Shown here in pieces: positions 133 to 5,152 of a DNA stretch of 5,152 bases; positions within the stretch are counted from its first letter, which is position 1, and every line of letters begins with the position of its first letter. The notes below the pieces were generated by a model, which ran no database searches, was not told the DNA's origin, and was given only the letters and a program-made list of their open reading frames with translations. Source of the DNA: a plasmid; assembly GCF_055900595.2 (NCBI RefSeq), contig NZ_JBVWEU010000009.1. One strand, 5' to 3'. Made by a program: the position numbers and the translations under genes.

Positions 133-1227
133 ATGGCAAGCTACCATTGCACAGTTAAAACTGGAGCAAAAGGCGTAGCCTTAAAACATGCTGATTACAT
201 TTCCAGATCCGGCGAATATAAAAACTATAAATCGCGGGAGGATCTGGAATTTTCTTCATCCGGTAACATGCCATCATGGGCGAAGAAAAATCCCGCAGAA
301 CTGTGGAAAGCTGCTGATGAATTTGAACGAAAAAACGGGACGGCATACCGTGAAATTGAGATCGCATTACCGCGAGAACTGACACGTGAACAACGGATAG
401 AGCTTGTTGAAGATTTCGTGCAAAAGGAACTTGGTGATCGCCATGCCTATCAGTACGCGATCCACAATCCACCAGGTGCAATTGACGGGAAGGAACAGCC
501 ACACGCGCATATCATGTTTTGCGAACGGATTAATGATGGTATTGAACGCGATCCGCAGCAGTTTTTTAAACGTGCCAACAGCAAATCACCAGAGCGGGGA
601 GGCGCAAAAAAGGCACGCTTTGGCGAGACACAACAAGAGCGAAAATCAGCCCTGGTTGCGCTACGCTCTCACTGGGCTGATGTGCAGAATGAACACCTTG
701 CGCGACACGGCCACCAGTCGCGCGTTGATCATCGTTCGCTGAAAGAACAGGGTATCAAGCGTACGCCGGAGGTGCATCTTGGTCCCGTTCGTGTTGCTGT
801 TATGAACGCTGATCAGGTTTGTGCAATTCTGGCATGGAGAAATGCGGAACGGGAGAAGCTGGAGGCCGAGAAGGAACGGGACAGCATCATTGACCTTAAA
901 ACGACCTTGAAGGAAGCGTTAGCTGAACGGGATAACATGCCACCAACCCTGGATGAGCTTGGGGCAGAATTGAAAGCGTTTGTTGAAAGCTCGTTTGATG
1001 AACTCAATGAGGTAATGCAGCTTAATTCATTGATTGACGGTGCGCTGGACACAATGATGAAGCAATTCCAGGTGGAAGAGGAGCGGAAGCTGCAACAGGA
1101 ACGACTAATTCAGGCTGCGCGAGATGAAGCCGAAAAACAAAGAGAGCTGGAGAGGGAAAGAGTGCGCCGGCGTGCGTATTCTTCACCAGCACCATCACGT
1201 TCACGCGATTATGGTATGAGCCGTTAA
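133..1227 (+). CDS. mobA: mobilization relaxase MobA (MobA/MobL family, MOBQ)
   Basis: 364-aa ORF, ATG at 133 with GGAGG at 116-120. The N-terminus MASYHCTVKTGAKGVALKHADYISRSGEY has the conserved Tyr-containing motif of MobA/MobL relaxases (compare RSF1010 MobA), and a downstream His motif (QPHAHIMF) fits the metal-binding histidine cluster. The C-terminal half is charged and coiled-coil-like (EKLEAEKER, QRELERERVRRR). It sits directly downstream of the oriT-like site. G+C is near half, typical of an enterobacterial backbone. Confidence 0.88.
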   Translation: MASYHCTVKTGAKGVALKHADYISRSGEYKNYKSREDLEFSSSGNMPSWAKKNPAELWKAADEFERKNGTAYREIEIALPRELTREQRIELVEDFVQKELGDRHAYQYAIHNPPGAIDGKEQPHAHIMFCERINDGIERDPQQFFKRANSKSPERGGAKKARFGETQQERKSALVALRSHWADVQNEHLARHGHQSRVDHRSLKEQGIKRTPEVHLGPVRVAVMNADQVCAILAWRNAEREKLEAEKERDSIIDLKTTLKEALAERDNMPPTLDELGAELKAFVESSFDELNEVMQLNSLIDGALDTMMKQFQVEEERKLQQERLIQAARDEAEKQRELERERVRRRAYSSPAPSRSRDYGMSR

Positions 1228-1248: not shown

Positions 1249-1965
1249 ATGCAATTGGATGAACATTCAAGAAAAATTGCTGCCCTTGTTGCGTATAATG
1301 AAAAGCAAATAAAAGAAATAAACAGGATAATTACTCTGCTTAATGAAAGAGTGAATGATTTAAATACCTTTACAGATACTCTTGAACGTGAAGGTAAAGT
1401 TGTATCTGGAATTTCTTATTCCTTGAGAGATAGTGTGTCTCATGTTGATTTTTATCTTAATAAAGGAATGGAAGAAGTATCCTGTAAATTACAGAAATCT
1501 GTCTCAGACACACTAACATCATTACTCCGTGAAAAATTATCTTTCACACTTAATGATGTAAGGCAAGAGTGGACTGATTTTGAAGAGCAAACAAGTAAAG
1601 AGATAAAGGAATCATTAAAGCAGACGACCAGAGATGCTGAAGTTGCGACAGGTATAATTAGAAAAATAATGGAAAAGTATACAGTAACAAGGATAGTCGA
1701 AAAGGTAATTGTGTTACTTGTGTTATTTTTATTACTAATGATAGCACCTGGTTTCTATGCTGAATATCTCAAAATGAATATCGGTTCTCTAATGGAAGAA
1801 CAGAAAAAACATGAATCTATGTTAAAAGAGTGGAAGGAAAAAGCACCATTGGCAGAGTTCTCTAAGTGTGGAGAGTATAGGGAAGCATGTGTGTTAGTTG
1901 ATGATAAAAGCGGATATTATTATGATGAACAAACTCCAAATAAAAAATATGCCATACTGAAATAG
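1249..1965 (+). CDS. hypothetical bitopic membrane protein (N-terminal coiled-coil domain, one transmembrane helix, small Cys-containing C-terminal domain); AT-rich cargo gene
   Basis: 238-aa ORF. ATG at 1249 is preceded by GGAGG at 1233-1237 and starts 21 nt after the mobA stop codon (TAA 1225-1227), with no obvious promoter in between. The N-terminal ~145 aa are rich in K/E with heptad-like spacing (EKQIKEINRIITLLNERVNDLN). One strongly hydrophobic segment (IVEKVIVLLVLFLLLMIAPGFYAEYL) follows, then a ~70-aa tail with two Cys (SKCGEYREAC) and a YYYDE motif. Codon usage is visibly AT-rich, about one-third G+C by eye, unlike mobA and rep. I recognise no family. Confidence 0.6.
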   Translation: MQLDEHSRKIAALVAYNEKQIKEINRIITLLNERVNDLNTFTDTLEREGKVVSGISYSLRDSVSHVDFYLNKGMEEVSCKLQKSVSDTLTSLLREKLSFTLNDVRQEWTDFEEQTSKEIKESLKQTTRDAEVATGIIRKIMEKYTVTRIVEKVIVLLVLFLLLMIAPGFYAEYLKMNIGSLMEEQKKHESMLKEWKEKAPLAEFSKCGEYREACVLVDDKSGYYYDEQTPNKKYAILK

Positions 1966-2120
1966 TGTTAAGTAACTCATTCCGCCTTATGACTAAGGCT
2001 GCATGAGTATAAAAACTAAAAATAAATGCCCGTACCTAAAAAATGGAACTACATATACTTATGTACCTTGAGAATGACGGAGTTAATTTATCCTTTGTTG
2101 TCAAATTTTTGACCCAAACA

Positions 2121-2171: not shown

Positions 2172-2969
2172 TTATGTATTGAATTCTAATACAGGGTCGA
2201 ATTGAAACATGTCATTAAAATAACATAGTGCTGGATTACTAAATGTAATTGGTTCTGCTTCGGTATTTAGGTAATCCAACCATTCATAATAATCTTTTTT
2301 AAATTGCGTGTATGTTTCTTTTGTCATTGGTTTGAATTGATAACCAAAAGTTGTATGAAATCTATATGTGTCATGGTTTTTATGTTTCACTCCTGTTATT
2401 TCAGCAACGGAATTTCTAAAGTTGATTAGTATTTCTTTATCTGAGTTGCTTGCAGGAATTAAAGGTATAATAAAGGCTGGTTGTTTATTATCGTCCCACT
2501 CTGGAGGTAGCGATGGTGTAGATTTTAGATCTACCTTCATTGTAACAGGTTTTTCAAATCCTATTTGTTTATTTTTAAGTGTATTTGCAATTAACTTTGT
2601 CGCTTCCTCCATGCTTATATTCGTGGGGGTGTTATAAGGCCAAGGATTTTTTCTATCGCCACTAATTAAAGAAATGATAGTCATGTGATAAGAGTTTGGA
2701 GGTAATAACACAATGCAATCACCAAAATCTCGTTGAATTCGAACCTGAATATTAAGCATTGCTTTAAATAAATTGCTGTCTTTATCTGTATGGCAGATTA
2801 CGGAACATCCTTTATATTGTGCAACCTTTCCATTGCGATAAAATTTTGCGCCCTTATCAAGACCGTTGTTTTGTGCTATTTCGCATCGATTATTTTCAGC
2901 AAAAACAGTATTAGATGTTATTGCTGCTGTTACTAATGCGGAAGATTTTATAAATGTTCTTCTGTCCAT
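2172..2969 (-). CDS. Tat-signal (twin-arginine) exported protein with 2H phosphoesterase (LigT-like) motifs; AT-rich cargo gene
   Basis: The minus-strand ORF track starts at 3029, but the preferred start is the ATG at 2969 (complement of 2967-2969), preceded by AAGGAA 7 nt upstream. It gives MDRRTFIKSSALVTAAITSNTVFA-ENN: a twin-arginine motif (RRxFIK), a hydrophobic h-region and an A-x-A-like cleavage site (VFA), i.e. a Tat signal peptide. The mature part carries two H-x-T-x motifs flanked by hydrophobics, about 110 aa apart: LLPPNSYHMTIISL and YRFHTTFGYQF. This is the signature of the 2H phosphoesterase superfamily, and the first motif resembles the PPENLH-hydrophobic-T-L segment I recall in LigT. 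G+C is about one-third by eye. Confidence 0.6.
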   Translation of the reverse strand: MDRRTFIKSSALVTAAITSNTVFAENNRCEIAQNNGLDKGAKFYRNGKVAQYKGCSVICHTDKDSNLFKAMLNIQVRIQRDFGDCIVLLPPNSYHMTIISLISGDRKNPWPYNTPTNISMEEATKLIANTLKNKQIGFEKPVTMKVDLKSTPSLPPEWDDNKQPAFIIPLIPASNSDKEILINFRNSVAEITGVKHKNHDTYRFHTTFGYQFKPMTKETYTQFKKDYYEWLDYLNTEAEPITFSNPALCYFNDMFQFDPVLEFNT

Positions 2970-3014
2970 AACAGATTCCTTATTAGTGAATGTGAGTTTC
3001 TTCTTCATTAGAAG

Positions 3015-3042
3015 AATGTAAAAAAACATAAATAAAAGTCAA
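3015..3042 (-). promoter_or_regulatory. candidate sigma70 promoter for the Tat/2H-like gene
   Basis: On the minus strand: TTGACT (complement of 3037-3042), a 16-nt AT-rich spacer, then TACATT (complement of 3015-3020). This lies about 45 nt upstream of the ATG at 2969. The alternative in-frame ATGs at 3029 and 3008 would fall inside or abut this promoter and lack a Shine-Dalgarno sequence. Confidence 0.3.
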
Positions 3043-3237
3043 ACGGTAAAAAACGCCTAGGGGCTTTCACGAAACAAACGGATTTGTACGCTGAACTTTG
3101 ACGTCACCCCGTTTGGGGGAAACTCATCAGAACGCTATATCAAATTCCCGCAAAGGACTTCTCATCCAGGGGAGAAAATTTGTCATTTTGACCCGTTCGC
3201 CGTTCTGTACGGTCGAAACCGATCGCGCATCGCTTTC

Positions 3238-3253
3238 GTGCATAGTTATGCAA
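3238..3253. promoter_or_regulatory. candidate ARG-box-like palindrome (accessory sequence of the cer-like site)
   Basis: gTGCATagttATGCAa is an inverted repeat (TGCAT / ATGCA, 4-bp AT-rich centre) resembling the ARG box half-sites TGAAT / ATTCA. It lies about 100-115 bp upstream of the XerC/XerD core, the distance at which ArgR binds in cer. Confidence 0.3.
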
Positions 3254-3353
3254 CGCGCTAAAAACGATTCTGACGCATTTTTTATGTTTACCCTGGTGTT
3301 TCCTTGTCTTTTTACGTTTTTTACGTCAGAAAGCGACTGAGGGCGTTTTAAGG

Positions 3354-3381
3354 GGTACGTACAAGAGGAGTTATGGTAAAT
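3354..3381 (+). other. cer-like XerC/XerD multimer resolution site (core)
   Basis: GGTACGTACAA-GAGGAG-TTATGGTAAAT. The left arm differs by one base from the ColE1 cer XerC arm as I recall it (GGTGCGTACAA), and the right arm is identical to the cer XerD arm (TTATGGTAAAT). The central region is 6 bp (cer has 8; dif and psi have 6). About 250 bp of non-coding sequence upstream (3100-3353) fits the accessory region. Confidence 0.6.
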
Positions 3382-3402
3382 GGATCGGGTTTGCGGGAAG
3401 GA

Positions 3403-3431
3403 TCGACAGGATTTGCCGTTGGGTGTAGTGT
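3403..3431 (+). promoter_or_regulatory. candidate rep promoter
   Basis: TCGACA (3403-3408), 17-bp spacer, TAGTGT (3426-3431). This would start a roughly 100-nt leader before the rep ATG at 3538, in line with the long antisense-controlled leader of ColE2-type rep mRNAs. Confidence 0.3.
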
Positions 3432-3439
3432 AAGCGACT

Positions 3440-3555
3440 GAAAAACAAACGCCCCTGAAATCATGTCCAGATCCGGCAAGATTCAACATGAAATACAGGG
3501 GCGAGGTCGGTCGATAACCTGGAAGGAATCGTAACACATGAGCGCCGCGCTTCAA
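3440..3555 (-). ncRNA. candidate antisense RNA (ColE2 RNAI-like copy-number control RNA) complementary to the rep leader
   Basis: A long interrupted hairpin in the rep leader: gcccctg (3451-3457) pairs with caggggc (3496-3502), and the inner arms tcatgt (3461-3466) pair with acatga (3486-3491). On the minus strand the stem is followed directly by GUUUGUUUUUC (complement of about 3440-3450), the shape of an intrinsic terminator for a minus-strand transcript. ColE2-type replicons are known to control Rep translation with a roughly 115-nt antisense RNA against the leader. The 5' end and promoter are not resolved, so the boundaries are approximate. Confidence 0.4.
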
Positions 3556-4473
3556 TACTTCGACGAAAATTTACCCCACCGTCCCTATCACACGGATGAT
3601 CTCGCTTTTGGTCTTCGCATCTCCGGCAAAGGGCGTGCGCTTCTTGCGCGGTACATACAGCAGAACCAGCCTCATGCGCAGTTCTGGCTGGTTTTTGACG
3701 TTGACCGCGAGGGGGCAGCGATTGACTGGAGTGACCGGAACGCTCCCGCGCCGAACATCACCGTAAAAAATCCTGTGAACGGTCATGCTCACCTGCTCTA
3801 CGCGCTCAATATCGCCGTGAGAACCGCGCCGGACAGCTCGGTTAAGGCGCTGAAATACGCCGCTGCGATTGAACGTTCGCTGTGTGAGAAACTTTGTGCT
3901 GATGTGAACTACAGCGGACTGATTTGCAAAAATCCGTTCCACCTGGAATGGCAGGTGATGGAGTGGCGCGAGGAAGCCTATACCCTCGATGAACTGGCAG
4001 ATTATCTCGATTTGAGCGCCTCAGCGCGTCGTAGCATCGATAAACATTACGGGATGGGGCGAAACTGCCACCTGTTCGAAATGACGCGCAAATGGGCTTA
4101 CAGGGCGATTCGTCAGGGCTGGCCAGCATTCTCACAGTGGCTTGATGCCGTGATTCAGCGTGTCGAAATGTACAACGCATCGCTTCCCGTTCCGCTTTCT
4201 CCGGCTGAATGTCGGGCTATTGGCAGGAGCATTGCGAAATACACGCACAGGAACTTCACGCCGGAAACTTTCGCACAGTATGTGGCTGATACGCACACAC
4301 CAGAAATACAGGCCAAGAGAGGCCGGAAAGGTGGTATCGCTAAAGGCGAAGCCTACGATGACAAGCGTTTCATGGCGCTATGTATGCTGGATAATGGATA
4401 TTCTCAGAAAGCTATTGCGGCGATGCTGAATGTACATCGTAATACGATCCGTAATTGGGCAATGCACAAATAG
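3538..4473 (+). CDS. rep: ColE2-type replication initiator Rep (plasmid-specific primase-like initiator)
   Basis: 311-aa ORF, ATG at 3538 with AAGGA at 3523-3527. The N-terminus MSAALQYFDENLPHRPYHTDDLAFGLRISGKGRALLARYIQQNQPHAQFWLVFDVDREGAAIDWSDRNAPAPNITVKNP closely matches what I recall of ColE2-P9 Rep (MSAVLQRFREKLPHKPY...QNQPHA...DWSDRN.PAPNITVKNP). The C-terminus has a helix-turn-helix-like segment (YSQKAIAAMLNVHRNTIRNW). The origin motif follows directly after the stop codon, as in ColE2. G+C is near or above half. Confidence 0.9.
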   Translation: MSAALQYFDENLPHRPYHTDDLAFGLRISGKGRALLARYIQQNQPHAQFWLVFDVDREGAAIDWSDRNAPAPNITVKNPVNGHAHLLYALNIAVRTAPDSSVKALKYAAAIERSLCEKLCADVNYSGLICKNPFHLEWQVMEWREEAYTLDELADYLDLSASARRSIDKHYGMGRNCHLFEMTRKWAYRAIRQGWPAFSQWLDAVIQRVEMYNASLPVPLSPAECRAIGRSIAKYTHRNFTPETFAQYVADTHTPEIQAKRGRKGGIAKGEAYDDKRFMALCMLDNGYSQKAIAAMLNVHRNTIRNWAMHK

Positions 4474-4515
4474 CCTATATCAGATAACAGCGCCTTTTCG
4501 GCGTCTTTTTGAGCA
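4474..4515 (+). other. ori: ColE2-type origin of replication (Rep binding and priming site)
   Basis: cctatATCAGATAACAGCGCCttttcGGCGTCTTTTTGAGCAg starts right after the rep stop codon (TAG 4471-4473). It matches the conserved ColE2/ColE3 ori core as I recall it (CCTTATCAGATAACAGCGCCCTTTTGGCGTCTTTTTGAGCA) with a few substitutions. Confidence 0.7.
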
Positions 4516-4569
4516 GCGGGCTTTCCGGCGGTTTTCTCCTTTCAGCCCAGCAATGGTGCGGCTTACCGT

Positions 4570-4640
4570 ATGATTGAGGTGGTCGTGCTCGCCGCAGTCT
4601 CATGACCGAGCGTAGCGAGCGAATGAGCGAGGAAGCACCA
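4570..4640. other. candidate single-strand initiation / primosome assembly site (ColE1 pas-like homology)
   Basis: GCTCGCCGCAGtctcatGACCGAGCGtAGCGAGcgaaTGAGCGAGGAAGC (about 4587-4636) is strikingly similar to the pBR322/ColE1 segment GCTCGCCGCAGccgaacGACCGAGCGcAGCGAGtcagTGAGCGAGGAAGC. In ColE1 this lies downstream of ori in the region of the PriA-dependent primosome assembly (n-prime) sites. Here it sits about 100 bp downstream of the ColE2-type ori, where lagging-strand priming would be needed. Confidence 0.4.
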
Positions 4641-4666
4641 GGGAACCGGAACGTGAACGGAGGCTC

Positions 4667-5113
4667 TTACGCACTGTCTTTGGTTAGTAGCTTCTTCCCG
4701 CGTCTTTCCCATTCCTGCCATTTTGGATGGTTGCGCGGTAGCTCTGCGATTCCTGCGAGTGCGCCTACCAGTTCGGCAGCACTACACTTTGGTTTTCCGG
4801 TTTTGCTGTCCACCAGTCCTGCCACAATCATGAGGCCTGCGGCCTTGTAGAGTTCATGATCCCGCGCTTTTCGTTCCGCCCTTGCGGCTGCCTTCCGTTC
4901 TGCCGCTATGATTGCCGTTACCCTGGCTTTTGCTGCGGCTGCTTTCTCTGCGGTTTTTTCTGCCCGTATCAGTGCGGATAACGTTTTTTCATCCGTCGTT
5001 GTTCGGTTTTTTTTCTCTGCCAGTAACACAAGTAATCTCTGCTGCTCTGACGGTGATTTCAGTCCGTTGATGTAGGCAATTTTTGCACTTAACCACTCTT
5101 CACGATTTGTCAT
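4667..5113 (-). CDS. mobC: MobC-like mobilization accessory protein (divergent from mobA across oriT if the molecule is circular)
   Basis: 148-aa minus-strand ORF. ATG is the complement of 5111-5113, with GAGGT 5 nt upstream. The protein is Ala/Lys/Arg/Glu-rich and helical (EKTAEKAAAAKARVTAIIAAERKAAARAERKARDHELYKAAGLMIVAGL, ELVGALAGIAELPRNHP), like the small oriT-binding accessory proteins found beside MOBQ relaxases. Its start is 39 bp from the window end; joining the end to the start puts it divergent from mobA with oriT between them, as mobC/oriT/mobA is arranged in RSF1010-type plasmids. The family call rests on position and composition, not on a recognised motif. Confidence 0.5.
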   Translation of the reverse strand: MTNREEWLSAKIAYINGLKSPSEQQRLLVLLAEKKNRTTTDEKTLSALIRAEKTAEKAAAAKARVTAIIAAERKAAARAERKARDHELYKAAGLMIVAGLVDSKTGKPKCSAAELVGALAGIAELPRNHPKWQEWERRGKKLLTKDSA

Positions 5114-5152
5114 TCTTACCTCTGCACTTTTGCCGTTAATGTGAGTTGTTAT

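Follow-up and report, generated by a model that had tools for sequence, protein, structure and literature searches.

The window analysed here, that is, the whole stretch of 5,152 nucleotides, appears to be an entire small plasmid, mobilizable and of Col156/MOBQ type, with a backbone common to more than 1100 enterobacterial plasmids (Table 1). Relative to plasmids pSCU-106-7 and pDETEC84 this backbone shows 92-97% identity over positions 1-2104 and 3172-5152 and none between these blocks. The intervening segment is cargo, with a GC content of about 33% versus about 50% in the rep/mob/traD part of the backbone. It holds a single gene, on the minus strand, coding for a DUF1868 protein, and stands where relatives carry a LysE-family gene and a gene for a 316-aa hypothetical protein. 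The DUF1868 cassette has replaced the latter and most of the former with respect to related Col156/MOBQ plasmids. A search for repeats around the cargo found none marking its borders, and the junctions 2104/2105 and 3171/3172 carry no obvious duplication. The gene is the only cargo of this small plasmid, which is mobilizable and found widely in E. coli and Salmonella. It encodes an apparently periplasmic and uncharacterised 2H phosphoesterase and is of moderate interest apart from the question of its start codon.

Table 1. Features of the 5,152-nucleotide window, in the numbering of the strand presented.
Feature	Position	Strand	Remarks
MobA/MobL relaxase	133-1227	+	
238-aa protein, conserved backbone gene	1249-1965	+	33% GC; C-terminal hydrophobic segment
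LysE-family transporter gene, 3' remnant	2003-2104	-	Still readable; ends in KDKLTPSFSRYISICSSIF followed by a stop
Cargo segment	2105-3171		Gene with 202 nt upstream and 67 nt downstream; unique to this plasmid lineage
Coding sequence, predicted DUF1868/2H phosphoesterase precursor	2172-2969	-	265 aa from the favoured ATG 2969; stop 2174-2172
Predicted Tat-type signal peptide	2898-2969	-	Residues 1-24, MDRRTFIKSSALVTAAITSNTVFA, then ENN; RR codons 2963-2958
Putative Shine-Dalgarno sequence	2977-2982	-	UAAGGA; 7-nt spacer to ATG 2969
Middle in-frame ATG	3006-3008	-	No Shine-Dalgarno sequence; at the predicted transcription start
Candidate sigma-70 promoter	3015-3042	-	TTGACT 3042-3037, 16-nt spacer, TACATT 3020-3015
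T7 run, T8 in a natural allele	3020-3026	-	From allele alignment
Distal in-frame ATG	3027-3029	-	No Shine-Dalgarno sequence; inside the candidate promoter spacer
PF03090 replicase	3538-4473	+	
TraD-like protein	4667-5113	-	

The product of the cargo gene matches Pfam PF08975 (DUF1868, "2H-phosphodiest") with 74.6 bits against a cut-off of 21 (E 8.5e-21). A word-indexed protein search gave only five matches, and an exhaustive search among representatives gave 555 family members at E <= 1e-3, most DUF1868 representatives being about 225-235 aa long and devoid of a signal. Two His-x-Thr motifs are present (H95-M-T97 and H205-T-T207), and in an alignment of 80 sequences H95, T97, H205, S93, R185 and K42 are invariant. 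The AlphaFold model has a mean pLDDT of 89.5, with residues 1-38 disordered (below 50 for residues 1-19) and confident structure from about residue 40. Foldseek paired it first with 2FSQ (E 2.4e-14, target-normalised TM-score 0.83, rmsd 2.0 Å), which phmmer also matched, and then with Usb1, LigT, plant CPDase and viral phosphodiesterases. The 2FSQ protein, Atu0111 of Agrobacterium tumefaciens, shares the PF08975 family, the fold and both His-x-Thr motifs with the window protein, but, like about four-fifths of the family representatives, it has no signal peptide and looks cytoplasmic. The window protein also resembles LigT, plant CPDase, Usb1 and the viral cGAMP/cyclic-nucleotide phosphodiesterases in fold (Foldseek E 3e-4 to 5e-3) and in the catalytic pair of His-x-Thr/Ser motifs, whereas their identity to it is only 8-16% and they are cytoplasmic, nuclear or viral intracellular enzymes rather than predicted periplasmic ones. 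The preliminary description had called the protein 2H-like, and fold, family and motifs all agree with that label. The product is thus predicted to be a 2H phosphoesterase of the DUF1868 family, putatively periplasmic. No match to it was found in the PADLOC (defence) and PHROGs (phage) libraries. A literature search for DUF1868 returned no paper and no member with a known substrate, and one combining "2H phosphoesterase" with "twin-arginine" returned nothing relevant.

The minus-strand ATGs at 3029, 3008 and 2969 lie in a single frame that runs to the stop of the gene, exactly at the coordinates given in the preliminary description when read on that strand. The maximal ORF has 285 aa because the first in-frame stop upstream is the TGA at 3041-3039. 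The ambiguity is reflected in public annotation, where the same DNA has been deposited as proteins of 265, 278 and 285 aa. The 265-aa form is the majority at NCBI (95, 53 and 7 contigs for its three main entries, versus 10, 6 and 1 for the 285-aa entries), the 278-aa form comes from Logan gene calls starting at ATG 3008, and the 285-aa form is found in some NCBI and UniRef records. Start calls depend on context, with NCBI holding 265-aa and 285-aa records for identical DNA; among clusters P0155-P0168, contigs shorter than about 2 kb carry the 278-aa form and full plasmid contigs the 265-aa form. The case is one of ordinary start-site ambiguity within a known family, and it is resolvable.

Of the three codons, ATG 2969 is the one preceded by a Shine-Dalgarno (SD) sequence, as had been claimed. 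The computed duplex with the 3' end of 16S rRNA reaches -6.2 kcal/mol for this codon, compared with +0.7 for ATG 3029 and +1.5 for ATG 3008, and its 7-nt spacer falls in the range of 5-9 nt expected for complementarity to the anti-SD. Of shuffled versions of the 201 nt upstream, 20-23% had one or more in-frame ATGs ahead of the first stop and 4-5.5% had two or more, and the pattern of upstream in-frame ATGs is therefore not beyond chance. Folding of the 236-nt upstream RNA revealed no significant structure (z = -0.78). On the opposite strand, a TTG-initiated ORF of 51 aa (2866-3021, plus strand), antisense to the 5' end of the gene, overlaps all three ATGs and is probably spurious.

Within 200 nt upstream and on the strand of the gene, TTGACT-16-TACATT is the sole promoter-like site. 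Its match to the consensus is weak, and sites of the same grade (9/12) occur at background frequency (4 found versus 5.6 expected); it is the probable promoter of the gene. The canonical +1 of this candidate promoter, 7 nt past the -10 hexamer, is the A of ATG 3008. From the positions of the two hexamers it follows that the spacer would contain ATG 3029 and that ATG 3008 would coincide with the predicted transcription start, in keeping with the earlier remark that the upstream ATGs overlap a candidate promoter. A small GCC/GGC hairpin with a T-run at about 3066-3045 was dropped from consideration, being broken in one allele, and a search of the sequence for a terminator-like site found none.

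Two more alleles, carried by this same backbone, belong to the 90% protein cluster, and one of them bears directly on the possibility that translation begins at ATG 3029 and uses the full 285-aa ORF. This is the longest reading frame and has been deposited as such in some database entries. In one allele (P0158), recovered from three different sequencing runs and samples (L016, L017 and L018), eight T residues instead of seven follow ATG 3029, so that this codon reads into another frame as MFFLHSSNEEETHIH followed by two stops, while the gene itself is intact. Given that the indel shifts the frame of ATG 3029 in an otherwise intact allele, this codon cannot be the start there, which brings the 285-aa reading close to refutation. 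At the level of the candidate promoter, the same indel changes the spacer from 16 to 17 nt and leaves the hexamers unchanged. Both hexamers are kept among the alleles, with the variation falling in the spacer, and a 1-nt indel is tolerable in a promoter and not in a coding region. In addition, ATG 3029 has no SD, is flanked by the two hexamers of the sole promoter-like site, would place MFFYILL ahead of the RR motif (a hydrophobic stretch in the n-region) and would add an extension that has no homologue. Its use as the start codon thus has next to no probability.

Beyond these alleles, tblastn and protein searches recovered the same exported protein in three lineages that are more distant. When the gene region was compared by megablast with PLSDB plasmids and complete E. 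coli genomes, no match appeared, and the copies on IncF plasmids, at 72-76%, were found only by tblastn or short-word blastn. The first lineage, on E. coli IncF plasmids (72% identity; WP_025492077.1 on NZ_CP070073.1, 266 aa), starts with TTG and has TAAGGAGGATCTAGT before the start. A Klebsiella copy (71% identity, partial, 161 aa) also starts with TTG, preceded by TAAGGAGAATATGTT, and a Salmonella copy (54% identity, 264 aa) starts with GTG, preceded by TAAGGGGAAATACA. All of the homologous proteins begin with M-[DN]-R-R-[TS]-F-[IV]-K-S-S, the window protein and these copies sharing an MDRRTFIKSS or MNRRSFVKSS N-terminus and the same SD position. The copies differ from the window gene in their TTG or GTG starts and in an upstream frame that is closed or has no start codon. 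Five codons before the start, the IncF and Klebsiella copies have an in-frame TAA, which belongs to TAAGGAG; the Salmonella frame contains no ATG, GTG or TTG over the 29 codons back to its upstream stop. An N-terminal extension is consequently impossible in the three lineages, and their start is unambiguous. The window frame is open back to the TGA at 3041 because its SD-to-start segment is 2 nt shorter than that of the IncF and Klebsiella copies, which puts the TAA out of frame.

The DNA itself points in the same direction. The window SD (2982-2977) aligns with TAAGGAGG, TAAGGAGA and TAAGGGGA of the homologues, and when the upstream sequences are placed in a multiple alignment, similarity begins at the SD, with none before it. 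The blastn alignment with the IncF copies covers positions 2987 to 2179, beginning 18 nt ahead of ATG 2969 and ending just short of the stop codon. Across the lineages, the codon equivalent to ATG 2969 is ATG, TTG, TTG, TTG and GTG, always one capable of starting translation. Since TTG makes up 6-18% of internal Leu codons and GTG 25% of internal Val codons (the latter in the Salmonella copy, the sole GTG-starting lineage), the product of these frequencies is about 1e-3, to be read with the lineages not being fully independent; an internal Met/Leu/Val position would seem to show such a pattern only rarely. The start is thus shared by homologues in which the upstream alternatives are excluded. 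On this comparative ground, translation very probably starts at ATG 2969. The preference for this codon expressed in the preliminary description is borne out by the upstream frames of the homologues, by homology that begins at the SD and by the T8 frameshift of ATG 3029; the choice is right, and public annotation mostly agrees with it.

The genetic contexts of these relatives differ from that of the window gene: they lie either on an IncF plasmid, in the vicinity of microcin B17, pemIK and rop genes, or on contigs of chromosomal appearance, and a comparison of neighbourhoods found no consistent gene context. On IncFIA plasmids, the 72% homologue (L001, NZ_CP070073.1 57186-57986) has rop/pemIK on one side and parM on the other, with a microcin B17 operon about 2.4 kb away. 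A 35% homologue (L014) is flanked by genes for a TonB-dependent receptor and for a FecCD/ABC uptake system.

The other codon to be weighed is ATG 3008, from which translation would yield a precursor of 278 aa, including a Tat signal of 37 residues that begins MKKKLTFTNKESVMDRR. Such a start would call either for a leaderless mRNA whose 5' end is at the AUG, which is conceivable because the predicted +1 coincides with its A, or for a transcript beginning further upstream. The 37 residues equal the average length of Tat signals, RR at residues 16-18 is found in other family members, and gene callers choose this codon on short contigs. It is also retained in frame in all three alleles, including P0158, where the 2969 position carries a weaker TTG; this retention carries little weight, as the alleles are about 98% identical. 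The divergent allele, P0158, has two substitutions in the 39 nt that separate 3008 from 2969; both would be non-synonymous if the stretch were coding (T to I and V to I), which speaks against coding. No homologue has anything corresponding to the 13 extra residues, the codon is absent from the 72%, 71% and 54% homologues with their closed or start-less upstream frames, DNA homology begins only at 2987, and there is no SD. In E. coli, moreover, a leaderless start usually initiates poorly when an SD-led one follows 39 nt downstream. ATG 3008 as the sole start is very unlikely on these data, and the codon most likely belongs to the 5'-UTR or marks the +1 position. If an upstream start were used after all, N-terminal peptides of the precursor would cover MKKKLTFTNKESV.

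Two mixed schemes deserve mention. In one, a leaderless mRNA beginning with the A of ATG 3008 would also be read at the internal, SD-led ATG 2969, yielding two precursors with Tat signals of 37 and 24 residues. This is even less probable than initiation at ATG 3008 alone, but if true, the T7/T8 spacer polymorphism might tune the transcription start and with it the ratio of the isoforms. In the other, ATG 2969 and ATG 3008 would simply both be used, so that precursors with two kinds of n-region would mature to the same protein. Low-level initiation at ATG 3008 would be possible if the transcript includes it, and selection against dual starts would be weak given the identical mature product. The evidence against ATG 3008 applies here as well, however, and no second start is conserved in any relative, so that the chance of dual use is slimmer again.

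Counted from ATG 2969, the RR motif occupies residues 3-4, as originally described, within D-R-R-T-F-I-K at residues 2-8, and RRTFI fits the TatP pattern RR.[FGAVML][LITMVF] (PMC1182353). Within the segment that follows, SSALVTAAITSNTVFA, the predicted h-region is weakly hydrophobic (best 12-residue Kyte-Doolittle mean 1.58). By inspection, Val at -3 and Ala at -1 before E25 agree with the -3/-1 rule for signal peptidase I, making cleavage after VFA (VFA/E) plausible. The segment formed by residues 1-24 is missing from the cytoplasmic family members. Among profile models, PF10518 (TAT_signal) aligned from Met2969 with 18.9 bits, below its cut-off of 22.7 (E 0.0014), and the NCBIfam Tat models (TIGR01409) gave no match. 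The earlier designation of the protein as exported has the consensus, the h-region and the cleavage site on its side and the two profile results against it; export is well supported as a prediction. Routing through Sec is possible too, since the c-region has no basic "Sec-avoidance" residue.

Signals in which RR stands at residues 3-4 are known from E. coli CueO (MQRRDFLK) and OpgD/MdoD (MDRRRFIK), and the window protein resembles them in its very short n-region followed by a motif near S/T-R-R-x-F-L-K. Among 149 more distant DUF1868 representatives (P0006-P0154), about one-fifth carry RR signals (27 by pattern and a few more by eye), with RR located anywhere from residue 3 to residue 18. With the remaining members looking cytoplasmic, the family appears to be split between two compartments. 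In P0006, a close relative, KR takes the place of the RR pair. The argument that the upstream ATGs would create an unusually long n-region did not stand: Tat signals average 37 residues, with the extra length usually in the n-region (PMC1182353), and the family tolerates the range of RR positions just given, so that n-region length was rejected as a criterion for the start. The signal would measure 37 residues from ATG 3008, which is typical, and 24 from ATG 2969, which is short. Signal length therefore does not discriminate between the starts, and the comparative data do.

With ATG 2969 as the start, the proposed sequence of events would be as follows. The UAAGGA SD, placed 7 nt upstream, would direct initiation at this codon, whereas ATG 3029, in the probable promoter spacer, and ATG 3008, at or next to the transcription start, would be non-coding. 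The two would be in frame merely by accident, as suggested by the TAA within TAAGGAGG and TAAGGAGA that closes the corresponding frame in the homologues. Translation would yield a 265-aa precursor with the short Tat-type signal MDRRTFIK-SSALVTAAITSNTVFA, to be exported in folded form by TatABC. Cleavage after VFA would then release into the periplasm a putative 2H phosphoesterase of the DUF1868 family, with its two His-x-Thr motifs.

The mature protein would be identical whichever start is used, and the direct importance of the correct one (2969, 265 aa) is small. The deposition of the same DNA in three lengths nevertheless confirms the initial concern that the choice affects signal-peptide prediction and expression constructs, to which database clean-up can be added.

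Two minor observations concern the backbone. The 238-aa gene product, annotated as "hypothetical protein" in related plasmids, has only weak matches, to AbiZ (PADLOC, E 1.5e-4) and to Syntaxin_2 (Pfam, below cut-off). The sole Rfam match in the window, to PK-repBA (repBA regulatory pseudoknot), is also sub-threshold (33.9 bits versus 45, E 9e-5) and was set aside as unrelated to the start codon, lying before rep. It spans the whole model at 3449-3571 (plus strand), beginning 89 nt before the replicase start at 3538 and reaching 34 nt into the gene, and may correspond to an antisense-controlled rep leader.
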